Origin: Candidatus Eiseniibacteriota bacterium
Lineage (GTDB): Bacteria > Orphanbacterota > Orphanbacteria > Orphanbacterales > Orphanbacteraceae
NCBI GenBank assembly: GCA_029262235.1
Contig: JAJCZU010000008.1
Coordinates: 195,621-259,620 of the forward strand
Length of the DNA stretch: 64,000 nt
Direction of reading: 5' to 3'
Part shown: positions 2,812 to 54,041 of the stretch, piece after piece
How positions within the stretch are numbered: position 1 is the first letter of the stretch
Layout of the letters: each line of letters begins with the position of its first letter
Notes under the pieces: generated by a model
Databases searched by the model: none
Told to the model about the DNA's origin: nothing
Seen by the model: only the letters and a program-made list of their open reading frames with translations
Position numbers and translations under genes: made by a program

Positions 2812-3342
2812 ATGTTTTCCATGAAGAAGATCGTTCCCCTCGCAGCACTCGTACTGGTAGTCACGGCTGGTAGCGTCTACGCTGCGACCACGGGTACCTC
2901 GGATGTCATTCTCGAGGCCAGCGCGACTGCGCAGCTCAACATCATCGACGCGAGCATCACGCTGACGCCGAACCAGACCGACTACGAAACGGGTTACGTT
3001 TCAGCCGAAGGCGCGGCCGGTATCGCCGTCGATATCCGGACGAACAGCTCCACCGGCGCGATCCTCCGTGTGAACTGCGGCGACGGGTCGCCCGAGATCA
3101 CGCTGACCGACCTGTTGTTCAAGACGGCGACGGCAGCGGGAGGCGCCGGCAGCACGCAGGCTTCCTACACGGCGATAACCGCCGCGGATCAGGACCTCTG
3201 GAGCACGACGACCACTTCGCCTTCGTACACGACCATCGATACCGACATCCGGGTCCAGAATCTCTGGAACTACTCCGATCCGGGCGGTGCGGGAACCACA
3301 AGCTACACGAATACATTAACTTACACCGTCGTCGTTCAGTAA
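2812..3342 (+). CDS. secreted fibre-subunit-like protein, paralogue 1 (SCPU/Csu-like, putative pilin)
   Basis: Signal peptide MFSMKKIVPLAALVLVVTAGSVYA. About 50 percent identical to the next gene product. The C-terminal ...TTSYTNTLTYTVVVQ resembles the G-Y-(T/D)-T-(I/L)-T-V-T-V C-terminal strand of SCPU/Csu/type-1 fimbrial subunits. Start could also be 2821 or 2779. Confidence 0.6.
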   Translation: MFSMKKIVPLAALVLVVTAGSVYAATTGTSDVILEASATAQLNIIDASITLTPNQTDYETGYVSAEGAAGIAVDIRTNSSTGAILRVNCGDGSPEITLTDLLFKTATAAGGAGSTQASYTAITAADQDLWSTTTTSPSYTTIDTDIRVQNLWNYSDPGGAGTTSYTNTLTYTVVVQ

Positions 3343-3348
3343 GGGACC

Positions 3349-3383
3349 GGTCCACCTCTCGTCGCATCTGCGAGAGGTGGACC
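3349..3383 (+). terminator. perfect 13-bp stem-loop directly after subunit gene 1 (partial terminator / attenuator candidate)
   Basis: GGTCCACCTCTCG (3349-3361), 9-nt loop, CGAGAGGTGGACC (3371-3383), starting 7 nt after the TAA stop at 3340-3342. No U-tract follows. Confidence 0.5.
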
Positions 3384-3561
3384 GAACCTCTGCCCCCGAC
3401 TTGCCCGTTTCTGGTCGATTCTTCCCCGATCCTGCTCAATCTTTCCATTCCGCAGCCGAAAAGCATAAATAGTGGAGATCTTTCCTGCTCTTGTACCTGC
3501 CCGGGCAAGGGATTTCCTGAAAATCGTGCAGAGATGAACTCTTTCGGGAAGGGAAAGCCGC

Positions 3562-4044
3562 ATGCCGGCTACGCGCACACTAGTACGCGCTCTGTTCGTG
3601 GTGACGATGCTGCTTGCGACGACGTCGACGCGGGCCCTGGCTCAGCTGAGCATCACGATCGTGAGTGCCAGCACTTCGCTGTCGCCGACTCAGCCGGACT
3701 ACGAGGCAGGTTACGTGGAAGTGACCGGAACGGGGGGCATTCACGTGAGAGTTACCACGCCCAACAGTGCGGGCCTGATCCTCTACGTCCGCTGCGACGA
3801 CGGCACACCCGAGATCGGTCTCTCTGACCTTCTCGTGAAATCCGCGACCACGGGAACACTCCTTCCTTCTTACACGGCGATCACGGGAACGGATCAATCA
3901 CTCTGGTCTGTGGCCGGTGCCGTTACGGACGAGGATGTCTATACGGACATTCGCATTCAGGGACTCTGGAGTTACCCGGACGCGGCGGGAGGCGGCACGA
4001 CATCCTATACCAATACGCTCACTTACACGGTGGTGGACCAATGA
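3562..4044 (+). CDS. secreted fibre-subunit-like protein, paralogue 2
   Basis: Signal peptide ...TSTRALAQ. Colinear similarity to paralogue 1: PxQxDYExGYV, V(N/R)C(G/D)DG(S/T)PEI, SYTAIT, TDIR(V/I)Q(N/G)LW, TTSYTNTLTYTVV. GGGAAGGGAAAG RBS. Confidence 0.6.
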   Translation: MPATRTLVRALFVVTMLLATTSTRALAQLSITIVSASTSLSPTQPDYEAGYVEVTGTGGIHVRVTTPNSAGLILYVRCDDGTPEIGLSDLLVKSATTGTLLPSYTAITGTDQSLWSVAGAVTDEDVYTDIRIQGLWSYPDAAGGGTTSYTNTLTYTVVDQ

Positions 4045-5220: not shown

Positions 5221-8200
5221 ATGCCTATGATTCGAAAACGATACATCCTCGCTGCCATCGTGCTGTTATTGCTCGCGATCGGCCTCCGTATCGCGCGCTC
5301 CCCCGGGGAAAGCCCGGGAGAGCAGGTGATAAGAGAAGATGAGCACGGTTCCTCTGTTGAATCGGCAAGGTGGAGAGCTCCCGGCAATCGCGTCGACTCC
5401 GATCTCTCAACGCGAAGTGCGGAGGAAAACACGCCCGGGGGTTTTGTGATCCGGCGGATTCCTCGATCGGAGTTCCAGGTCGCAGAGACCGCGGAGCGCG
5501 AAGAGCATAATCCGGAACGCGAAGCGACCTCTACGACGACGCCTGTGTCCGCACCGGCGCACCGGTCCGACGCCGCGCAAGCGAACGCAGGCACGAGCCA
5601 CGCGAATACGATCGTGCGAACAAACCAGGGAGAAGCGTCGAGCGGAAAGGCAGTCGTTACGCGCGACGCGGACGCGAACACGAGCGCGAACACGAGCACG
5701 AATACGAGCACGAATACGAGCACGAACGTTGTCGAGAATGGCGCCGCAGGACAAAAAAAAGTCGCGCCCCTCGTTCTCGCGCCGCGAATCGAACCGACGC
5801 ATCGCGCGCCGGTTCCCGACGAGGCCGAGTCTCTCGAAGAATCCGAGCCGTTCGTGGTAAGCCGCGTCGAGCGCCAGAACCGGGACGCGGGCAAGACTGT
5901 CGCGCCATCCGGCGTTGTCACCCAATCTCACGATCAGTCGAACGGGGAAGCGATCGCCGCGCGCGACACGAACACGAGCACGAACACGAACACGAGCACG
6001 AGCACGAACGTTGTCGAGAATGGCACGGCAATACAAGAGCAAGCCGCTCCCCTCGTTCTCGCGCCGCGAATCGAACCGACGCATCGCGCGCCGGTTCCCG
6101 CCGAGGCCGAGTCTCTCGAAGAATTCGAGCCGTTCGTGGTAAGCCGCGTCGAGCGGGAAGACCGAAACGACAACACGCCCGAAACGCGGCGTGAAAACCT
6201 TACTGCCGCAACAGAAGTTCCGTCTCGACCGGCGACCGGGCCCGCGACCGCGCCAACGACGGCGCCAATGACCGCGCCAACGACCGCGCCAACGACGGCG
6301 AAAACGTTGTCGCAAACGAACGAGATCAAGACGTCGAGAAGCAAGGCCGCAGTCATGCGCGACGCGAACACCAACACCGACGTCGTCGAAAACGGCGCCC
6401 TGGTACAAGAGGAAAGTGCGCCTCTGGTTCTCGCGCCGGAAACGGGCGTTGCAGCGCAGGAGAACGTTGCGGAGTCGCAGGAATCGGTCGAATTCCCTTC
6501 GGTCGAACCGCAGGAAGATTTCGAAGTGCGACTCGTCAAACGCGGCGAAAGCGACGGCACCCCCCCTGCCTTGCACGAATATTCGCAGTACGAAGAGAGC
6601 GATCTCGAAACGTTCGAATCCAGGCAGATTCCCGTGTCCGAGTTTCCGCTCGTCGAAACGCTGCATCGCCGTATCCGCATGCGCAAGAACCAGGCGGCTG
6701 AACCGGCACCGCTCATGTCCCGCGTTCCGCAGCAGAACAACTCCGTCTTTCGCCTCTGGGACCAGATCGCGCTTCGCTTCTCGAGTGTTCTGAACCGGCC
6801 CCAGGTCGGGGAGGCAACGCGGGAGGGACGCTATGACGTAAATCTCGTACGGATGCAGTCGGCGGGGCGGTTTGATCTCGAAAGCCGGATCGGCGATCGC
6901 GACGGGGACTATTATCTCGCGCGGGGATACGCGGGGTTTGCCACGCGGAGCGGCTGGGCCGCGGGGGTCGGCGATCAGACGATCGGATACGGCGGCGCGG
7001 GGCTGCATGGCGCTACCGCGCGCGGAATCCAGATTCGGCACACACGCCGTGCCGGCAGTTCCTCCGCAACGTGGTCCGGAGGGGCCATGGTCGGCGGAGC
7101 GGCTTTGCAGCACGCGAATCTCGAAGACGGAAAGTTTCCGCGCCGCGTCGAAGCCGCCTATCTGCGTGTGGAAAAGCCGCGCCGACAGGGAATCGAGGGA
7201 GTGGTGTATCACCTGGCCGAGCGCGAAGCGGGAAGCGTCATCTCACCGGACGGAATCCGCGGCGGTGCGGGCGTCGGTCTCTCCGGCTCTTTCATCCGGA
7301 GCGGCCTCGACTTGCGCGCAGAGTATACGGGTTCGGCTCCGCAGTTCGAAAACGGGAGCACGGAGCGGGGGCAGGCGCTCGATCTCCGGAGTACGGGTAC
7401 CCGCGGCCCTGTGAATCTTTCCGGCCGGCTTCGTACGAGCCGCGGCGCGGCGTATGAAATGGGACCCTTCGGCATCATGGAGCGCATCCCGCGATTGATT
7501 CAGGACGCGAATCTCTCCCTGAGACCGGGGCGCGGTTCGAGCGTCAGCGTCTTCGGCGGACGCTGGGAATACCCGCCCGACATCTTCCCGGACACATTGG
7601 AATCGGCTTCCACGAGAAGATCGATCGAAGGGAATCGCCGCGGCGCCAGACTGACATGGAGAAGCGGGCGGAGCGGTACGGGGCTTTCCGCGTCGCGCGA
7701 ATATCGAGAACGCGTACTGGAGTCGGGATCCGAACGCGTCGCGACCCTCGCTGCTTCGGTTTCGCAGAGGATTCGCAGGCTTCTGAACGCGTCGCTCTCC
7801 TGGAACCGGCTCGACTACGATCACCGCGCTTCGAACAACTACCTCACCGGCTCCATGAGCCTCGACATGGGGCGCAGGGGAACATTGACCCTGCAACAGC
7901 GGAGCTTCTGGCAGGAGCCGTTCGGGCCGCGGCTCGAGTCGATCGTCGACCTCTCTTCGTTCCGACTCCTGAACAACAGGCTGTCACTTTCGGGCCAGGT
8001 CGCACTGACTTACGAGCAGCGTGACGACGGACGATTCTACCGCGATCAGACACGCGGACAGGTGGCGGGTGACTATCGCATCGGTCGGTTCGATCGGCTG
8101 TCCGGTCGTTACCAGCTGAGTCACTCACCAGTCGGACACGTCCATACGGCTTACGTCGGCCTCACACACTCGCTCGATTCGCGAAGCGATATTTCCTCCG

Positions 8201-37792: not shown

Positions 37793-38470
37793 CTACTCGC
37801 TCGGATCCGGGTCCTCGTCGTAATAGTCGATCTGATCGATCGGAAGCACGACGGTCGTGGCGATGTTCGTAAGGTGGCCGGCAATTCGTTTGTAGTAGCG
37901 GAAGATCAGCGCGAACGCCACGATGTTCCGGAACGGCTTCTCGGTCGCCATGTATCCGTCGACATACTTGTCGCAACGCTTCGCGAGAGGTCCGTTGATT
38001 TCGATGATCTTGCGGGCGCGCCCCTCGTCCTGTACGCGGAAACTGTCGACCGCGAGATTCATCATTTCGAGGATCTCTTCGCGCATGACCCGCAGCTGCT
38101 TCTGGTCTTCTTCCGGACCTTCGCCCGGCACGAGCAACTCGATGGCTTCAAACATGTTCTTACAGTAGTCGCCGATCCGCTCCGCATCCTTCACAACGCT
38201 CATCAGAATCAGCGACGCCGTAATGTCGCTCTTCGGATTCACCGTGAGATGCTCGACGATCCGACGCCGAATACGCTGCTGCTGCAGATTGATATTGTGA
38301 TCGACGTCGTAAAATTTCTGCTTCGTCGAGCTGATTTCCTCGCCGGCCATCCAGCGGTCCGTCAGCTCCTGAAACATGAAGCGCCCGTCAACGAGCATGC
38401 CGAGAAAGTCGTCGCTCATCTGGGAGAGCAGCGATTTCCCGGACCAGATTTTCATTAGTTGCTTGAACAT
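37793..38470 (-). CDS. PhoU-domain regulatory protein
   Basis: Two PhoU-like helical repeats with the DxxxERIGD motif (KDAERIGDYCKN; YKRIAGHLTNIA). Adjacent to the Na/Pi cotransporter. Confidence 0.7.
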   Translation of the reverse strand: MFKQLMKIWSGKSLLSQMSDDFLGMLVDGRFMFQELTDRWMAGEEISSTKQKFYDVDHNINLQQQRIRRRIVEHLTVNPKSDITASLILMSVVKDAERIGDYCKNMFEAIELLVPGEGPEEDQKQLRVMREEILEMMNLAVDSFRVQDEGRARKIIEINGPLAKRCDKYVDGYMATEKPFRNIVAFALIFRYYKRIAGHLTNIATTVVLPIDQIDYYDEDPDPSE

Positions 38471-38488
38471 CGTCGTAGCTTTCCCGGC

Positions 38489-39628
38489 CTAAATGCCTTT
38501 GATCATATTGTATACGAGAACCATCACGAGTGGGAGTCCAAAGAAAATGCCCAGAACGTAAACAAGCGCGTACCGCTTGGACTTGACCGCCATCGAGGCG
38601 AACCGCGTGGCCATGCGGGGCGGCAGTACGCGCAGGGCGGGCACTGCCAGGAAGATGACCATTCCCGAAACGTTGAACAGGAAGTGAACGAGCGCGATGG
38701 TCAGCGCCTCGGGGCGGTCGGCCGCGAGCGACGCCAGGATCGAAGTGAAAGTGGTGCCGATATTGGCGCCCATCGTGATGTAGAAGACCTGCTGAAGCTG
38801 CACGAGGTTGGCCGCGATCAGCGGGATCATGAACGAGGTCGTGATGCTCGAGGATTGCACGAGAAACGTGACCGCGAAGCCGAGCAGAATTCCGAACAGC
38901 GGGCTTCTCGTGACGAAACGGTCGATCACGTTTTCCACCGTGGAAGTCAAAGTCGCCCGCAGCACTTTGACGAGTCCGCTGAGACAGAGAAAGAGAAGAC
39001 CGAGCGAAACCACGATCAGCACGATCGCCGCAATCTGCGGCGAGAGCTGCATGATGCTGGTATCACCTGTCAGAAAATGCTCGCACCATTTCACGACCGG
39101 CTTCGTGATGACTTTCACCGGGCTCGTGAATTCCGCGCCGGATGAACTTCCGTGCAGAAGCTGCGTCGCCCACGTCGCCGTCTTTCTCAAGAATCCGGTC
39201 GCAATTTCGAGCGGAAGAAAAAAGAGCACGAGCATGAAGTTGAAGAAATCGTGAACGGTGGCGCCGGCAAAAGCGCGTTCGAACTCTTCGTCACGGGTCA
39301 GGTGCCCCATCGAAACGAGTGTGTTCGTGACAGTGGTCCCGATATTCGCGCCCATGATGAGCGGAACGGCCGCCTGCACTCCAAGGGTCCCCGCAGACAC
39401 GAGGCCGACCACGAGCGAAGTCGTAAACGATGACGACTGCACGAGCGCGGTGGCGAGAATCCCGACGAAAAGGCCGACAAACGGATTCTCGGTATGAGCG
39501 AACAGCGATTCCGCAAACTCTTTACCAAGCAGCTTGAAAGCCCCGCTCAGCAGCGAGATGCTGAGCAGGAATCCATATAATAGAAGGACAATGGAAAGTA
39601 CGTTCGTGAATTGCTGTGGTTTTCGCAT
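38489..39628 (-). CDS. Na+/phosphate cotransporter family protein (NptA-like)
   Basis: Duplicated SSSxTTS / GANIGTTxT motifs: QSSSFTTSLVVGL...GANIGTTVTN and QSSSITTSFMIPL...GANIGTTFTS. Confidence 0.85.
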   Translation of the reverse strand: MRKPQQFTNVLSIVLLLYGFLLSISLLSGAFKLLGKEFAESLFAHTENPFVGLFVGILATALVQSSSFTTSLVVGLVSAGTLGVQAAVPLIMGANIGTTVTNTLVSMGHLTRDEEFERAFAGATVHDFFNFMLVLFFLPLEIATGFLRKTATWATQLLHGSSSGAEFTSPVKVITKPVVKWCEHFLTGDTSIMQLSPQIAAIVLIVVSLGLLFLCLSGLVKVLRATLTSTVENVIDRFVTRSPLFGILLGFAVTFLVQSSSITTSFMIPLIAANLVQLQQVFYITMGANIGTTFTSILASLAADRPEALTIALVHFLFNVSGMVIFLAVPALRVLPPRMATRFASMAVKSKRYALVYVLGIFFGLPLVMVLVYNMIKGI

Positions 39629-39794
39629 GGTTCTCGCAGCGATCTTTCGTTTTCAGAGTCGACTCTGAATGGGTCGCGATTGTTTTCAGCTTACGAGGTG
39701 AACCCGAAACCGGTCCTGGCTGCCGGGAGGCGAGTCATCGATGTGTAGACAGTCCGCAAACGGTATCAAATTACGCGGCGGGAGGAATAGTACT

Positions 39795-41324
39795 TTATCC
39801 GCGCTCGGGGAGTGACCGCCAGACCGGCCCGTTGCGCCCGGCACGGTTCCTCTTTTCGAGCCGGAAGAGATGCGCGAGAACCGATCGCTCCGCGAGCGCC
39901 TGCAGATCCGGTGATACGTCCGTATATGCCTTTTCTACAATCGCTTGAGTCGTTGCCGGGCCTTCGTTCAGAACGGCCAGTATCGCCGCCTCACGCGCCA
40001 TTCTGTGATCCACATACCGCCCGATCAGGCCCGCGGGATCACCGACAACGGCGCCATGCCCCCCGATCAGAATCCACGCGTCCAGCGCGCGCAGTTTCTC
40101 GAGAGAGGCGAGATAGTCGTCCATGTCGCCGTTCGGCGGATTCACGAGCACGGAACCGTGCCCGAGTACATGATCTCCCGCGATCAGAACGCGGGTCGAC
40201 TCTTCGAAAAACGCCAGATGCCCCGGCGCGTGACCGGGCGTGTGCACCGCCAGCAGTGTCCGCTCCCGCGGGCCGGCCAGGCGGATTCGCTCGCTGTCCT
40301 CGATCGCACGATCGAACGTGAAGTCAGGGAGCAGGTCGATCGTGGCCTGATGGGCCTCGACAGGGATGCCGTACCTTTCGCGTGCCGCCCGCACCGCCCC
40401 GATGTGATCCGGATGATGATGCGTCAGCAGAATTCGTGACGGCGTGCGCCCCTTCTCCGCCAGATCATCGATCATCGCGAACAGGACGCGCTGCTCGTCC
40501 CGGTCCTCAGGAGCGGGATCGATGAGGGCCATCTCCCCTTCGCCGAACAGAATCGTGTTCGTATGCGTCGCCGGGGGGAGCGTCCGCGTCTGCAGCGGGA
40601 CGAGCACGACGCCCGCGAGAATCTCGATCCGTCGCGTCGGCTCCCCGTGCGCTCCCCCGTGCGCGAGCGCGCGCTCCGCCACCTCACCGAGACTCCCCCC
40701 CGGCTCGATCGCTTCGAGCGTCGCCCTCGTGGGCGGCACGAGCAGAATCTCCAGCGAGCGCCATCTCGCGAGCGCCTCCCCCGCCGGCATCCAGTCCCAG
40801 CCCGCGATTTCCGGCGAGCGAAGGGAGATCTCCCTCTTCTCGCTCACGTCGACCAGAAAGAAATGCGTGTCGAACCGCCGAAACGAGAACGGGGGTGTCA
40901 GCCAGTTTCCGGCGGAAACGAACCCGCGCGCGTCAAGAGAGAGCCCCGCCTCTTCGAGGAGAGTCGCAAGCGGCGTCCCGTCGCGCTCGTACCGGTCCCA
41001 GAGTGCGCGCTGCTCCGCGGGCGGAATCGCCGGTTCCGCGAGCAGAATCGACGTTTCCTCGAAGAGCTCGCGGAGCGCCGCGGCCCGCAGGCCCCCGGAA
41101 TCACCGCCCAGGACCGGGAGATCCACGTCCGCGCGGTCGACCACGCCGCCGGGAAAACCGTGAAAGCCTCCCAGGAACGGCTGACTGGCCGAGCGACGAA
41201 CCAGGAGCACGTCTTTTCCGTCCCGCAGCACGACGGTGGCCGCGCGGCGCGGCTTGCGGGTTTTTTCGCTCGCGCTTCGGGTCAGATCACCCAAGGTGAT
41301 ACTCCGTGCCCCCCTGGGGGCCAA
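39795..41324 (-). CDS. NUDIX hydrolase - MBL-fold metallo-hydrolase fusion protein
   Basis: NUDIX box GGFHGFPGGVVD...ALRELFEETSI in the N-terminal 150 aa. HxHxDH motif (LLTHHHPDHIGA) and a downstream HTPGHAPGH in the C-terminal half. Confidence 0.8.
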   Translation of the reverse strand: MAPRGARSITLGDLTRSASEKTRKPRRAATVVLRDGKDVLLVRRSASQPFLGGFHGFPGGVVDRADVDLPVLGGDSGGLRAAALRELFEETSILLAEPAIPPAEQRALWDRYERDGTPLATLLEEAGLSLDARGFVSAGNWLTPPFSFRRFDTHFFLVDVSEKREISLRSPEIAGWDWMPAGEALARWRSLEILLVPPTRATLEAIEPGGSLGEVAERALAHGGAHGEPTRRIEILAGVVLVPLQTRTLPPATHTNTILFGEGEMALIDPAPEDRDEQRVLFAMIDDLAEKGRTPSRILLTHHHPDHIGAVRAARERYGIPVEAHQATIDLLPDFTFDRAIEDSERIRLAGPRERTLLAVHTPGHAPGHLAFFEESTRVLIAGDHVLGHGSVLVNPPNGDMDDYLASLEKLRALDAWILIGGHGAVVGDPAGLIGRYVDHRMAREAAILAVLNEGPATTQAIVEKAYTDVSPDLQALAERSVLAHLFRLEKRNRAGRNGPVWRSLPERG

Positions 41325-41601
41325 TTCCGTAAACTATGGTGCATGCAGTCAAAATATGACAACTCCTGTAGACAGTTCACGCCTTTTGCCCGCCTCCTGG
41401 GTTGACGCTCGAAGCGATTCATTTTGAAAGAGTTAGGGCAATTGCCGGGGATTCGGTCACCACTTGCTAACTTTGGTTGTCAGTTCAATCTTGATATGGA
41501 AGCGGCCTCTCGCTCTCATGCCGACATCCAATCCACGTTAAATACAACAAATCCATGTCGTTGTCCGTAAAAATTCTTTTATTCCTTTGTGACTGCAATG
41601 C

Positions 41602-41617
41602 TGGCACAACCGTTGCA
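41602..41617 (+). promoter_or_regulatory. sigma-54 (-24/-12) promoter, exact TGGCAC-N5-TTGCA
   Basis: cTGGCACaaccgTTGCAtt. The GG and GC dinucleotides have the canonical spacing. An AT-rich tract (41560-41595) lies immediately upstream. It sits in a 690-nt non-coding gap. Confidence 0.55.
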
Positions 41618-41627
41618 TTAACCAAGT

Positions 41628-41758
41628 GCATGGCCGAACGGGAGACCGGCCTGATCGAATACCTCGGCTTCGCATGTTGTTGCTTTCCTCAATGGGGGAG
41701 CGTGGGGAGGCAGTGACTTCGCCGAGGATTGAGAGGGAGCCTTCGGGCTCCCTTTTTT
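41628..41758 (+). ncRNA. candidate sigma-54-dependent small RNA (~130 nt)
   Basis: The predicted +1 is ~12 nt after the -12 GC. Hairpin GGCCG(41632-36)/CGGCC(41647-51). Long hairpin CCTCGGC(41662-68)/GCCGAGG(41721-27). Several GGA/GGGGA motifs. Ends at the GGGAGCC-TTCG-GGCTCCC hairpin plus T6 (41735-41758). No plausible CDS. Confidence 0.4.
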
Positions 41759-41927
41759 ATTGGTATTCAACCCCCGCGCGCTCACTTCAGGGAAGCCTTC
41801 GGGCTCCCTTTTTTATTGGTATTCAACCCCCGCGCGCTCACTCCAGGGAGCCTGCGGCTCCCTTTTTTATTGGTATTCAACCCCCGCGCGCTCACTTCAG
41901 GGAAGCCTTCGGGCTCCCTCCCTTTTT
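41735..41927 (+). repeat. tandem array (about 3.5 x 54-56 nt) in which every unit is a terminator-like hairpin + T5-6 followed by a conserved 31-nt spacer
   Basis: Hairpins at 41735-52, 41790-808, 41846-62 and 41900-18. T runs at 41753-58, 41809-14, 41863-68 and 41923-27. The spacer ATTGGTATTCAACCCCCGCGCGCTCACT(T/C)CA is repeated three times. Confidence 0.9.
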
Positions 41928-42012
41928 CGACCACACCCTTTCCCCTGTCCCGCCCGTCGATTATACTCTGCAGGAATCCCGGCATGAACCCCGAACGAAG
42001 CGAGTCCCTCAC

Positions 42013-43215
42013 TTGACGAGAAGTTTCAGCAAGGCGCCCTCCAAGGAAATCCGCGCTCAGGTAGGTGTCCAGATCGAGAGCGATTTCAGCTCGCGCCTGG
42101 TCGGCTATCTGCGTGAGAACGGGTACCAGCTCGAGGCGGGCGATACCACGATCAAGCTCGCGGCCGAATTCGGGTTCTGCTATGGGGTCGACCGGGCCAT
42201 CGAGTATGCGTTCGCGGCCCGCCACCGGTTCCCGAACCGCCGGATCTGGCTCACGGGCGAGATCATTCACAATCCGGGCGTCAACGAACGCCTTCGCGAA
42301 ATGAAGATCGATTTCCTGCCGAATACCGACGACAAGAGCGTGCGTTACGCCGACCTCGCGAAGGACGACGTGATCCTGATCCCGGCTTTCGGCGCGGACT
42401 CCGAGGAGATGACGTACTTCCTGAACGAGGGGTACGAGATCGTCGACACGACGTGCGGGTCCGTACTGAACGTCTGGAAACGAGTGCGGAAGTATGCGAA
42501 CGAAGGCTTCACGGCGCTCGTTCACGGGAAATTCGATCACGAAGAAACGATCGCCACCGTTTCGCAGGTGTGCGCGGAATCGCCCGACGGCCACTACCTC
42601 GTCGTTCTCGACCTCGAAGAAGCGAGGGAGCTTGCCGCGATGATCGTATCCGGCGACTGGAGTGACTTCGACCGGAAGTTCCCGGAGCACGCAAGAAGCA
42701 AAGGCTTCGACCCGGCCCGCGATTTGATGCGGATCGGCGTCGCGAACCAGACGACCATGCTGGAATCGGAGTCGCGCGAAATCGGCGAGATCGTGCGCGC
42801 CGCCATCGGCGAACGCTACGGCGCGGGCGAAACGGAATCGCACTTCCTGTCGTTCGACACGATCTGCAGCGCCACGGAGGATCGTCAGCGCGCGGTGAAG
42901 GAACTTCTCGCGGACGGTGTCGATCGCATGATCGTAATCGGCGGGTACAACAGTTCGAACACGGGCCACCTGCTCGAACTTTCGAGCGCCGTGATCCCGG
43001 CGTATCACATCGTCGACGCCGGCTGCCTGATCACGCCCGAACGCATCGTCGCCAAGCCGAACGGCCGCGAGCCTGTCGAGATGACGGGCTGGCTCCCCGA
43101 GGGACCGCAGGTGATCGGCGTGACCGGCGGCGCCTCGACGCCCGACTCGATCGTGGGCCTCGTGATCGAACGCATCCTGCAGCTGCGCGGCGTGCCGCTT
43201 CCCTCACTCACCTAG
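42013..43215 (+). CDS. ispH: 4-hydroxy-3-methylbut-2-enyl diphosphate reductase (long, cyanobacterial/plant-type form)
   Basis: AEFGFCYGVDRAIE, IIHNP, DTTCGSVLNVW, GVANQTTM, GGYNSSNT, GASTPD. No in-frame ATG lies upstream of the conserved core. TTG at 42013 is the best in-frame start; the ORF-track extension back to 41626 runs through the hairpin repeats. Confidence 0.85.
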   Translation: MTRSFSKAPSKEIRAQVGVQIESDFSSRLVGYLRENGYQLEAGDTTIKLAAEFGFCYGVDRAIEYAFAARHRFPNRRIWLTGEIIHNPGVNERLREMKIDFLPNTDDKSVRYADLAKDDVILIPAFGADSEEMTYFLNEGYEIVDTTCGSVLNVWKRVRKYANEGFTALVHGKFDHEETIATVSQVCAESPDGHYLVVLDLEEARELAAMIVSGDWSDFDRKFPEHARSKGFDPARDLMRIGVANQTTMLESESREIGEIVRAAIGERYGAGETESHFLSFDTICSATEDRQRAVKELLADGVDRMIVIGGYNSSNTGHLLELSSAVIPAYHIVDAGCLITPERIVAKPNGREPVEMTGWLPEGPQVIGVTGGASTPDSIVGLVIERILQLRGVPLPSLT

Positions 43216-51418: not shown

Positions 51419-53926
51419 ATGAACTTTCGGCGCATGGCATTGCTGGTCCTCGTTCTCGGGGCGGTCTTCTCCGCCGCTCCCGCGATTGCGCTCGATCGCG
51501 TCTGGGTGGCGACAATCCCTCCCGGCGAATCGATCGAAACGGCATGGACGCTGGGCGCTGAAGTATTCGACCGCACTCCCGAAATGTTCGTACTGGGCGA
51601 CGCGCACTCCGCAGCCACGCTCGCCGGCGCGGGCTGGACGGTGGACGGCCCGTACGACCTGGACACGGACAAACGTCACACGCTCGGTTACGAAAAGGGC
51701 ACCTCGTTCGGAATCGCCGACATCGACTTCAGCGTCGCCGCGCCCGGCGCGCGCATCCTCTGGGCGCGGGGCCGATCACTTCTCACGGAAACCACTGACG
51801 AGTTCCCGCACATCGATTACGGCGAACAGCACCGCCATATCAAACTGCAGAACCTGCGGAAGCGGGCGATTCGACGACCGATCGTGCAGGCTCCCGCGCG
51901 CGAGAAAGCCGCGGCCACCACGTTTCTTCCCATCATCTCGGACATCATGGCGCAGGTCGACTCGAACGCTCTCAAGACCTGGGTCGACAATCTTTCAGGC
52001 GAAAATTCCGTTCTGATTTCGGGGAATCCGTTTACGATCGCCACGCGCTGGACCGACAACGCGCAGTGCGACACGGCCGAACGCTATGTGCTCGAGCGCT
52101 TCCAGGCGATGGGCATTCCGGCGCAGTTCGACCCGTACTCGTTCTCGGGCACGGACGCACGCAATGTAGTCGCCACGATCACGGGCACCGAAACACCGAA
52201 CAACATCTACATCATCGGCGGGCATCTCGACTCACGCGCACAGAGCTCGCCGCACAATCCGGCCCCGGGCGCGAACGACAACGCTTCAGGGACGGCCGCC
52301 GTGCTTCACGCCGCCGAGATTCTGAAAGACTACGAATTCAAATCGACGATCAAGTTCATCGCGTTCACGGGGGAAGAGCAGGGGCTCTTCGGCAGCGAGC
52401 ACTACGCCGCGGCGGCCGCAACGGCGGGCGACAACATTCTGGGCGTCGTGAACTGCGACATGATCGCCTGGTACAACGCGCAGTATCAGATCGACATCGA
52501 AGGCGAAAACGCGTGGGCGGCGCTCATGCAGGTCATGGACGATGCGTGCACGGAATTCACGACGCTGAACACCGTGCAGACGTTCTTCAGCTTCGGCTCG
52601 GATCACGTGCCGTTCCAGAATGAAGGCTTCCCGGCGTTTCTCGCGATCGAATCCGAGTATGGTTCGTACCCCTGCTATCACGTGACGTGCGACACATCCG
52701 ACAACAACAAGTACACGTTCGGCTGGGAAGTCACGAAGGCGTGCATCGCCACGATCGCGCATCTCGCCGACCCGGTCGGCCTCTCGATTCAGCACACGCC
52801 GATCGCGAACACGCAGGACACGGTCGGCCCGTACACCGTGACGGCCGTGATCACTTCGCCCGACCCGATCATCGCCGACTCGCTCCGCATGCACTACGCG
52901 ATCGACGGCGGCGGCTTCACGAACGTGCTCATGACGCCGACTGGCGGCACCGACGAATACAGCGCCGACATTCCGGGGCAGAGTTCGAACACGACCATTA
53001 CCTATTATATTGCCGCCGCCGACTCGACCGGGCGAAGCGAAACGAGTCCGGCCGGCGCGCCCGGGTCGGTGCACCAGTTCTTCATCGGCAGCGTGCAGAC
53101 GTTCGCATTCGAAAATTTCGAGTCGGCCGTGATCGGATGGTCGCACGGCGGATCGAACGACGACTGGGAGCTCGACGCGCCGCAGGGACTCGCGGAGGAT
53201 CCGGCAACAGCATCCTCCGGTACCATGGCGTACGGAAACGACCTGACCGGGCTCGGAGCGAGCTCCGGCAAGTACGAGAACAACTCCGACAACTGGCTGC
53301 AGTCCCCTTCGATCGACTGCACGGACTACACCGACGTCAAACTGTCGTTCCAGCGCTGGCTCGCCGTCGAGCGGTCGAACAACCAGCAGTGGGACTGGGC
53401 GCGCGTTCTCGTGAACGGCAACATCATCTGGGAGAGCCCGTCGGGCGCGAATCTGATCGACGCGAGCTGGACGTTCCAGGAATTCGACATCAGCGCCTAC
53501 GCCGACAACAACCCGAGCGTCGTGGTGCGCTTCGAACTGCACTCGGACGTATCGCTCTCGTTCGGCGGATGGACGATCGACGACTTCAAATTCACGGGAA
53601 TCGGGCCGCCGACCGCGACCGACGTCGCGGGCTCGGACGCCGCCCCTCGTTCGATGCGCCTCTTTGCGAACACGCCGAACCCGTTCAACCCGACCACGAG
53701 CATCCGTTTCGCGCTTCCCGCGCCCGCGGAGATCGAGCTCGCGGTGTACGACATCTCCGGGCGCCGCGTGAAGACGCTGGCAGCGGGTCAGTTCCCGGCG
53801 GGCGAGCACGCCGCCACGTGGACCGGTATCGACGAATCGGGCCGCCCGGCCGCGTCAGGCATCTATTTCTACCGGCTTACGGGGGCGGACGAGACGAAGA
53901 TCCGCAAGATGCTCCTCGTCCGCTAG
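51419..53926 (+). CDS. secreted M28-family aminopeptidase with Ig-like module, MAM/LamG-like domain and Por/T9SS-type C-terminal sorting domain
   Basis: GGHLDSRA...APGANDNASGTAAVL...FIAFTGEEQGLFGSEHY (M28 metal ligands). CTD NTPNPFNPTTSIRFALPAPAEIELAVYDISGRRVKTL...WTGIDESGRPAASGIYFYRL...KMLLVR. Confidence 0.85.
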   Translation: MNFRRMALLVLVLGAVFSAAPAIALDRVWVATIPPGESIETAWTLGAEVFDRTPEMFVLGDAHSAATLAGAGWTVDGPYDLDTDKRHTLGYEKGTSFGIADIDFSVAAPGARILWARGRSLLTETTDEFPHIDYGEQHRHIKLQNLRKRAIRRPIVQAPAREKAAATTFLPIISDIMAQVDSNALKTWVDNLSGENSVLISGNPFTIATRWTDNAQCDTAERYVLERFQAMGIPAQFDPYSFSGTDARNVVATITGTETPNNIYIIGGHLDSRAQSSPHNPAPGANDNASGTAAVLHAAEILKDYEFKSTIKFIAFTGEEQGLFGSEHYAAAAATAGDNILGVVNCDMIAWYNAQYQIDIEGENAWAALMQVMDDACTEFTTLNTVQTFFSFGSDHVPFQNEGFPAFLAIESEYGSYPCYHVTCDTSDNNKYTFGWEVTKACIATIAHLADPVGLSIQHTPIANTQDTVGPYTVTAVITSPDPIIADSLRMHYAIDGGGFTNVLMTPTGGTDEYSADIPGQSSNTTITYYIAAADSTGRSETSPAGAPGSVHQFFIGSVQTFAFENFESAVIGWSHGGSNDDWELDAPQGLAEDPATASSGTMAYGNDLTGLGASSGKYENNSDNWLQSPSIDCTDYTDVKLSFQRWLAVERSNNQQWDWARVLVNGNIIWESPSGANLIDASWTFQEFDISAYADNNPSVVVRFELHSDVSLSFGGWTIDDFKFTGIGPPTATDVAGSDAAPRSMRLFANTPNPFNPTTSIRFALPAPAEIELAVYDISGRRVKTLAAGQFPAGEHAATWTGIDESGRPAASGIYFYRLTGADETKIRKMLLVR

Positions 53927-53994
53927 CGGATGTCTCGACTCGGGTCGAGCGGATGTCTCGACTCGGGTCGAGCGGATGCCTCGACCGATGTCGA
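53926..53994. repeat. 3 x 23-nt tandem repeat, each unit containing the palindrome TCGAC-N4-GTCGA
   Basis: GCGGATGTCTCGACTCGGGTCGA occurs at 53926-48 and 53949-71. A degenerate third unit GCGGATGCCTCGACCGATGTCGA lies at 53972-94, then GTGGATGTG. The array starts at the last base of the M28 stop codon. Confidence 0.85.
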
Positions 53995-54041
53995 GTGGAT
54001 GTGTGGCCAATGACCGGATCTGCTGATACAATCCCGGCGTT

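Follow-up and report, generated by a model that had tools for sequence, protein, structure and literature searches.

In the 64,000-nt stretch of Candidatus Eiseniibacteriota DNA analysed here (the window; contig JAJCZU010000008.1, positions 195,621 to 259,620), a structured small RNA (sRNA) with a putative sigma-54 promoter lies upstream of ispH in the same orientation. The gap between the two is occupied by a tandem array of four GC-rich hairpins, each followed by a U-rich tail. The features of this locus are listed below by window position, with the predicted folding energy (dG, in kcal/mol) where it was calculated.

41602..41617, + strand: putative sigma-54 promoter, TGGCAC-aaccg-TTGCA, with -24/-12 elements
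41628..41761, + strand: structured sRNA, shortest isoform; 5' end predicted from the promoter, 3' end in terminator hairpin 1
41734..41929, + strand: whole tandem array of four hairpin-plus-U-tail units and three spacers (base-by-base coordinates and repeat family D4)
41735..41761, + strand: unit 1, hairpin GGGAGCC-TTCG-GGCTCCC (41735-41752) and tail UUUUUUAUU; predicted native terminator of the sRNA
41790..41817, + strand: unit 2, hairpin GGGAAGCC-TTCG-GGCTCCC (41790-41808), with a bulged A, and tail UUUUUUAUU; dG -10.5 to -12.5
41846..41871, + strand: unit 3, hairpin GGGAGCC-TGC-GGCTCCC (41846-41862) and tail UUUUUUAUU; dG -12.6 to -14.6
41900..41929, + strand: unit 4, hairpin GGGAAGCC-TTCG-GGCTCCC (41900-41918), the same as hairpin 2; dG about -12
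41962..41967, + strand: -10-like box TATACT, putative ispH promoter
42013..43215, + strand: ispH, 4-hydroxy-3-methylbut-2-enyl diphosphate reductase, 400 aa from TTG 42013

An earlier note, made from the letters of the window, had described four terminator-like hairpins between the sRNA and ispH with a period of 54-56 nt. This description is borne out both by Tandem Repeats Finder, which reported an array at 41734-41919 (period 56, 3.4 copies, 93% matches, score 337), and by a base-by-base check, in which hairpins spaced at 54-56 nt are separated by intervals of 37 nt. Hairpins 1 to 3 are each trailed by TTTTTTATT (U6AUU) and then by the 28-nt spacer GGTATTCAACCCCCGCGCGCTCACTTCA, the 22-nt core of which occurs three times in the window against 0.00 expected from 100 shuffles. 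The spacers had been called identical, which is all but correct: spacers 1 and 3 match exactly, and in spacer 2 a single T>C change at 41843 places a variant spacer (CACTCCA) directly 5' of unit 3. Positions 41746-41809 and 41856-41919 are 100% identical over 64 nt at an offset of 110 nt (family D4). This exact repeat makes a two-unit higher-order repeat of the suspected size and points to a recent block duplication. All copies lie in direct orientation, with no terminal inverted repeats and no target duplications. All three forward frames remain open through the array and give rise to the overlapping phantom open reading frames (ORFs) already noticed, starting at 41626, 41729 and 41760.

Each unit has the GC-rich stem and U-rich tract of an intrinsic terminator, with stems of 7-8 bp that include six G-C pairs in units 1 and 3, the two units scored as terminator-like by a terminator scan. 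Predicted energies in the window are overall about -12.5 to -19 kcal/mol, and the stem of unit 1 can be extended to 11 bp from 41731 (dG -14.3 for the core, -19.0 when extended). Hairpin 4 is followed by TCCCTTTTTCG (UCCCUUUUUCG / UCCCUUUUU), which is the weakest U-tail and marks the end of the array.

The sRNA to which unit 1 belongs is about 125 nt long and consists of a P1 hairpin GGCCG[AACGGGAGAC]CGGCC, a P2 stem CCUCGGC/GCCGAGG, a P3 stem with the invariant cap CCUCAAUGGGGGAGCGUGGGG, and the terminator. Related loci were collected using ispH as an anchor and, in JGI metagenomes, the invariant RNA core as a pattern, which yielded 11 distinct sequences; the loci named in this family are the window, L001, L002, L003, L083-L088, L093, L081, L082 and L094. 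In the alignment of these 11 sequences (A1), pairing holds in 96.5% of cells, and compensatory changes occur in 13 pairs, a number reached by none of 500 shuffles, while slid controls gave 2-6. P3 covaries, with a cap that reads CCUCARUGGGGGAGCGUGRGG across the 11 sequences, and the terminator helix orthologous to hairpin 1 shows changes on both sides in 6 of its 10 pairs. The sRNA has two invariant G-rich loops, AACGGGAGAC and AAUGGGGGAGCGUG. The promoter motif TGGCAC-N5-TTGC is found at a constant distance from the RNA in 11 of 12 distinct loci, the exception being L092, a divergent variant that was excluded from A1. At window positions 41445-41483, which lie 120-155 nt before the sigma-54 promoter, the block CCGGGGATTCGGTCACCACTTGCTAACTTTGGTTGTCAG is a candidate enhancer site for a sigma-54 activator; it recurs unchanged in L081 and can still be recognised in L082 and L094.

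In all 11 distinct Eisenbacteria-like loci the sRNA stands directly upstream of ispH in the same orientation. Three of these loci were found by the RNA pattern alone, and ispH still adjoins; the linkage is also kept in a locus with a different upstream gene. Searches of Rfam gave no match to the sRNA at gathering thresholds in the window, or at E<=10 in 41300-42100, and low-level matches (sroE, mir-7383 and others) were dismissed as chance. Neither an RNA motif associated with ispH nor sigma-54 in Eisenbacteria was described in the literature searched. On comparative sequence evidence, the sRNA represents a new and strongly conserved RNA family, putatively sigma-54-dependent and linked to ispH in a phylum that is uncultured, which may act in trans, as a cis regulator of ispH, or both. 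The same comparisons identify the repeated unit as the predicted intrinsic terminator of this conserved sRNA, because hairpin 1 is orthologous to the single, covarying terminator of the RNA family.

Consistent with this assignment, nine distinct distant loci (including L002) have one terminator each, with a 9-12-bp stem, a dG of -18.6 to -22.6 and mostly a run of 7-8 T. Arrays are limited to the clade of the window, where they were found at the same site in four independent assemblies with 4, 6, 6 and 4 hairpins. The comparison of ispH upstream regions proposed in the earlier note therefore shows copy number varying within one clade and the array missing from distant relatives. The four arrays are as follows.

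Window: 4 hairpins, period 54-56 nt; TTTTTTATT then the 28-nt spacer after each of hairpins 1-3
L081, an NCBI metagenome-assembled genome (MAG), ispH 96% identical to the window in protein: 6 hairpins, period 52-54 nt; TTTTCTATTGGTAC, then about 20 nt of related, diverged spacer
L082, an ENA contig, ispH 90% identical to the window in protein: 6 hairpins, period 54-57 nt; TTTTCTATTGGTG then TAAAGCCCGCACGAGCTCATTGCA
L094, a 36.7-kb Logan contig, ispH 84% identical in DNA: 4 hairpins, period 31-34 nt; 13-14 U-rich bases only

L094 is the outgroup to the other three, which are about 90-92% identical to each other in ispH DNA. Its four hairpins all pass the terminator scan, against 1.2 expected, and are separated by intervals of 13-14 nt. 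The only features common to the four arrays are the 7-bp stem GGGAGCC/GGCTCCC and a U-rich tail. Between genomes, stems are identical and the U-tail plus GGT is 92-100% identical, as against 56-68% for the remaining spacer; for comparison, neutral-looking intergenic DNA nearby is 72-78% identical and the sRNA 94-95%. The shared and conserved part, hairpin and U-tail, coincides with the elements of an intrinsic terminator and includes nothing else. Beyond it, TTTTYTATTGGT is kept in three genomes, and the ATTGGT motif is absent from L094. Spacers that are alike within a genome and different between genomes indicate concerted evolution. Loops vary in sequence and in length (3-6 nt), as expected for an RNA hairpin, and in hairpin 6 of L082 an extra base pair was gained in compensated form, GGGAGCCC/GGGCTCCC. 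Array hairpins, with 7-bp stems against 9-12 bp, fold less stably (-12.5 to -14.6 kcal/mol) than the single terminators found in distant relatives, and their U-tracts are often interrupted. The last two hairpins of L081 are degenerate (-5.8 kcal/mol).

Read-level evidence comes from Logan contigs, built with a 31-base assembler word, of two source-like runs, X1 and X2. These contigs break at the array, as expected of repeats longer than the 31-base word. Flanking contigs have depths of 12.8 and 12.1 in X1 and of 8.4 and 8.2 in X2, while the repeat unitig reaches 34 and 23.8, respectively (2.7-2.9x flank against 2.26x predicted by the assembly), and the junction unitig 18 and 10.5 (1.3-1.45x against 1.0x). 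A repeat depth of this order corresponds to about three occurrences of the unit in the whole genome, and the unit is thus not dispersed. Unitig depths over 41738-41823 nevertheless lie 1.2-1.45x above the prediction of a four-hairpin assembly, and the k-mers unique to unit 3 (41813-41855) are missing from the Logan contigs of both runs, which makes unit 3 the least verified of the four. Graph simplification would explain the missing hairpin-3 words; taken together, the excess depth and the absent words may reflect either such simplification or copy-number heterogeneity in the population, and the depths may leave room for one more block in part of it.

That the array could be an assembly artefact or a copy of a dispersed repeat was considered in this light. 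The breaking contigs, the missing variant and the excess depth are what such an origin could produce, yet arrays at the same site in four independent assemblies from different studies rule out an artefact, and one of them is uninterrupted over 36.7 kb, its repeats being shorter than the assembler word. A search for the unit found no further copies outside the array in the 64-kb window or in 94 fetched loci. The uniformly direct orientation, the lack of terminal inverted repeats and target duplications, and a depth of about 3x flank, as local copies would give, all contradict the REP/MITE-like element (repetitive extragenic palindromic sequence or miniature inverted-repeat transposable element) listed in the earlier note, and the same holds for a bacterial interspersed mosaic element (BIME). 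This explanation is largely refuted and is hardly credible.

RNA evidence was obtained from a seawater metatranscriptome (X11), in which a single 248-nt contig, from an L081-like organism and with a depth of 2.6x, matches the locus. The contig starts at the equivalent of 41636, about 8 nt past the predicted start site, crosses hairpin 1 and ATTGGTA, and continues for 117 nt more; the 30 letters visible past ATTGGTA extend to where the next hairpin begins (CCGAAACCCGTTGGCCGAGCCCCGGGAGCC...). No other genuine match was found across 6.7 kb around the locus, and the ispH, NUDIX and Tricorn genes are not covered, which marks the contig as RNA rather than contaminating DNA. Unlike this contig, DNA contigs of other runs extend upstream of the promoter. 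The start and the read-through of the X11 contig indicate that the sRNA is expressed in a relative and that its first terminator, at least, is leaky there.

The box between the array and ispH has counterparts in relatives: TAT(A/C)(A/C/T)T is aligned in nine loci about 30-45 nt 5' of the ispH start, with invariant A-TAT columns and the forms TATAAT, TATATT or TATCCT, and it is the probable promoter of ispH itself.

Based on these observations, the array is probably a lineage-specific, copy-number-variable tandem amplification of the sRNA terminator that acts as a set of serial leaky terminators shielding ispH, although our confidence in this reading is moderate. Slippage or unequal recombination would have duplicated the hairpin, its U-tail and some 3' flank, and the copies would have been kept alike within each genome. 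A polymerase starting at the sigma-54 promoter would then meet four to six individually modest terminators in series. To judge from their anatomy and from the one RNA contig, each hairpin would stop a fraction of the polymerases only, and the sRNA would accordingly be made as nested 3' isoforms. The series would bring about near-complete termination together with a ladder of such isoforms; almost no sigma-54-driven transcription would reach ispH, whose promoter and coding sequence would be shielded and which would be expressed from its own promoter just downstream of the array. The extra copies may be selected, or they may be tolerated slippage products homogenised with a selected unit 1. Among the roles proposed in the earlier note, a fail-safe multi-terminator is the best supported, since hairpin and U-tail are all that the four arrays share and ispH has its own -10-like box. 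An amplified sRNA 3' module describes the origin well, the unit being the sRNA terminator and being transcribed by read-through in a relative, and the Hfq-binding part of that proposal belongs to a rival explanation discussed below. Regulated attenuators controlling ispH are not supported.

Several points weigh against the serial-terminator reading. Termination at every hairpin is predicted, the RNA support is a single low-depth contig from a relative rather than from the organism of the window, and the copy number in the window is the value given by the assembly. The two degenerate distal hairpins of L081 resemble decay, homogenisation with a selected unit 1 could by itself account for the conservation seen in the downstream hairpins, and the putative ispH promoter is proposed from a conserved box.

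Some of these points would be expected of a neutral minisatellite, in which a slippage-prone hairpin yields extra copies that expand, drift and decay, and terminate leakage, without a selected role. We regard this explanation as unlikely, but it deserves to be taken seriously: close relatives differ in hairpin number, units measure 52-57 nt in three genomes and 31-34 nt in the fourth, a block of 110 nt was recently duplicated in the window, the distal units of L081 have degenerated, and homogenisation could yield conserved stems with no selection on each copy. What speaks for serial terminators instead is that all four sampled members of the clade have an array, despite ispH DNA identities down to 84%, and that none has reverted to one copy. 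Stems and tails are moreover much better conserved than spacers, and the extra pair in hairpin 6 of L082 was compensated.

The other two explanations assign the array a function beyond termination. The classic Hfq-binding module consists of a hairpin and a U-rich tract behind it, and the three to five extra modules carried by read-through isoforms could form a multivalent sponge for an Hfq-, ProQ-, Csp- or CsrA-like protein, or could mask the G-rich invariant loop. Read-through RNA with array units does exist in a relative, the units resemble the Hfq-binding module, TTTTYTATTGGT is conserved in three genomes, and the window spacer CCCCCGCGCGCUC pairs at 11 of 12 positions with the invariant loop GGGAGCGUGGGG (dG -22 to -25, shuffle p 0.01-0.04). 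This complementarity is marginal in L082 and absent in L081, however, and L094 has no such spacer and lacks ATTGGT; spacers as an anti-seed or decoy for the sRNA loop were thus rejected as a general feature, since strong pairing is confined to the window and is not shared by L081 or L094. In a comparison with CsrB/RsmZ sponges, which expose many GGA motifs in hairpin loops, the sRNA body has two invariant loop motifs (ACGGGAGAC, GGGGGAGCG), while the GGA motifs of the array units lie inside strong stems and not in loops. An RNA-level platform of this kind appears quite improbable. Alternatively, the sRNA could be a leader that acts in cis on ispH as a riboswitch, attenuator or processive antiterminator, with the array as a multiplied expression platform and ispH dependent on regulated read-through. 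The conserved position upstream of ispH in 11 of 11 loci, including three found by RNA alone and one in which the upstream gene differs, would fit such a leader, as would the riboswitch-like layout of invariant loops followed by a terminator and the observed read-through of at least one terminator. Against it, the conserved -10-like box separates the terminator from ispH, and in L002 the RNA and ispH are parted by an insert of some 700 nt. One antiterminator helix cannot open four to six serial terminators, no conserved alternative pairing or helix was found, and the X11 contig has no adjoining ispH coverage. Pairing of the sRNA loop with the ispH translation start region was not significant in the 11 loci (p 0.12-0.71), and an essential housekeeping gene would not normally be expected to have a sigma-54 promoter. 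We therefore give very little weight to a leader. A bolder proposal, in which the sRNA is a cis sensor or processive antiterminator and the number of terminators sets regulated read-through into ispH, or, in a second version, in which the array is a multivalent protein sponge, is likewise a long shot.

Three further ideas were set aside. A promoter inside each unit was sought in the window, L081 and L082, and no sigma-70-like site was found; the GG-N10-GC spacing of sigma-54 is not kept, as judged by eye. The lone promoter-like match in L094 overlaps hairpin 1 only. Derivation of the 3' half of the spacer from the 3' body of the sRNA reached p = 0.07 in L082 and was not significant elsewhere. 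A palindromic protein-binding site in DNA is unlikely, because the loops are 3-6 nt long and the bulged-A variants break the symmetry yet keep the hairpin.

Among known systems, the closest counterparts of the serial-terminator array are the tandem, or U-shaped, terminators, defined as more than one hairpin less than 50 nt apart (WebGeSTer DB, PMC3013805), a definition that covers both the window array, with its 37-nt intervals, and that of L094, with 13-14 nt. Like the array, they consist of hairpin-plus-U-tail units in series, from which cumulative termination is expected, and more efficient termination has been reported for two tandem hairpins than for a single one (PMC8355165). The fail-safe double terminators downstream of gyrA in M. 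smegmatis are a close known case. Known tandem terminators are, however, usually two unrelated hairpins, whereas here a single terminator is present as four to six direct repeats, which are homogenised in each genome and vary in number among close relatives. NsiR1, a 60-nt sRNA encoded by 12 tandem direct repeats upstream of hetF in Nostoc (PMC9045159), offers a likeness of another kind, with identical central copies and diverged peripheral ones. In contrast to NsiR1, where each repeat is a complete gene with its promoter, a promoter precedes the first unit only and the terminator alone is repeated; the 31-34-nt units of L094 are too short to hold a promoter and an sRNA of their own.

The array also shares with intergenic minisatellites, or variable-number tandem repeats, the head-to-tail arrangement of units of tens of bases, a copy number that differs between related genomes, homogenisation and block duplication; variation within a population is hinted at by depth only. 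It differs from them in that the unit is a terminator signal, with a functional part that stays conserved as the remainder diverges. REP, BIME and MITE elements likewise form clusters of GC-rich palindromic intergenic units, and some REP clusters attenuate transcription. The array units are not dispersed, however, lie in direct orientation only, with no alternation, and each has its own U-tail. Short palindromic repeats at regular spacing recall clustered regularly interspaced short palindromic repeats (CRISPR), a resemblance that the earlier note had rightly discounted: the spacers are not unique, being identical or one base apart in the window, near-identical within each genome and homologous between genomes, with repeats of 17-19 nt and a period of 54-56 nt in the window. 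No account of identical terminators repeated in tandem, or of this arrangement upstream of ispH, turned up in literature searches.

In this clade a single terminator has been multiplied into four to six copies, which form a homogenised array in every member sampled. If the serial-terminator reading is true, the array would be a natural case of terminator strength tuned by copy number, and not by the quality of stem or U-tract, and would illustrate how quickly sRNA 3' ends can evolve. The sigma-54 RNA family linked to ispH is the more novel object and probably a more valuable lead than the array. At a practical level, the array breaks short-read assembly graphs, produces phantom ORFs and has already caused mis-annotation of ispH in a public record. 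The public protein P0121 (507 aa, NCBI) starts at ATG 41692 and runs through the 3' half of the sRNA and the whole array (41692-42012); it is likely a mis-extended IspH with a 107-aa N-terminal extension, the true start being TTG 42013, which gives 400 aa. P0002 (447 aa, from L082) is extended in the same manner.

The window IspH is 96% identical to P0001 (400 aa, Pfam LYTB, NCBI name IspH), and the MAG that encodes the 96%-identical protein bears the label Gemmatimonadetes. Among named relatives, the closest are MAGs assigned to Candidatus Eisenbacteria, with 64% IspH identity.

On the other side of the sRNA, a PhoU-like gene, a Na/Pi cotransporter and a NUDIX-metallo-beta-lactamase fusion lie on the - strand at 37793-41324. 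All three are divergent from the sRNA, and L081, L082 and L094 have them in the same order. Immediately upstream in L084 there is another ORF, on the + strand, in place of the fusion. The insert of about 700 nt that separates the sRNA terminator from ispH in L002, an Eisenbacteria MAG, spans 3270-3990 and holds two copies of a 79-nt direct repeat (3688-3766 and 3874-3952, 81% identical), with a related motif at positions 1-100 of L091. This intergenic slot thus accumulates unlike repeats in different lineages.

Elsewhere in the window, the region 5675-6300 contains runs of 6- and 12-nt tandem repeats (CGAACACGAGCA, ACACGA, CGACCGCGCCAA) and a 201-nt repeat in two copies that start 282 nt apart and are 90% identical. 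A 23-nt tandem repeat, AGCGGATGTCTCGACTCGGGTCG, is present at 53925-54002 in 3.4 copies with 89% matches.

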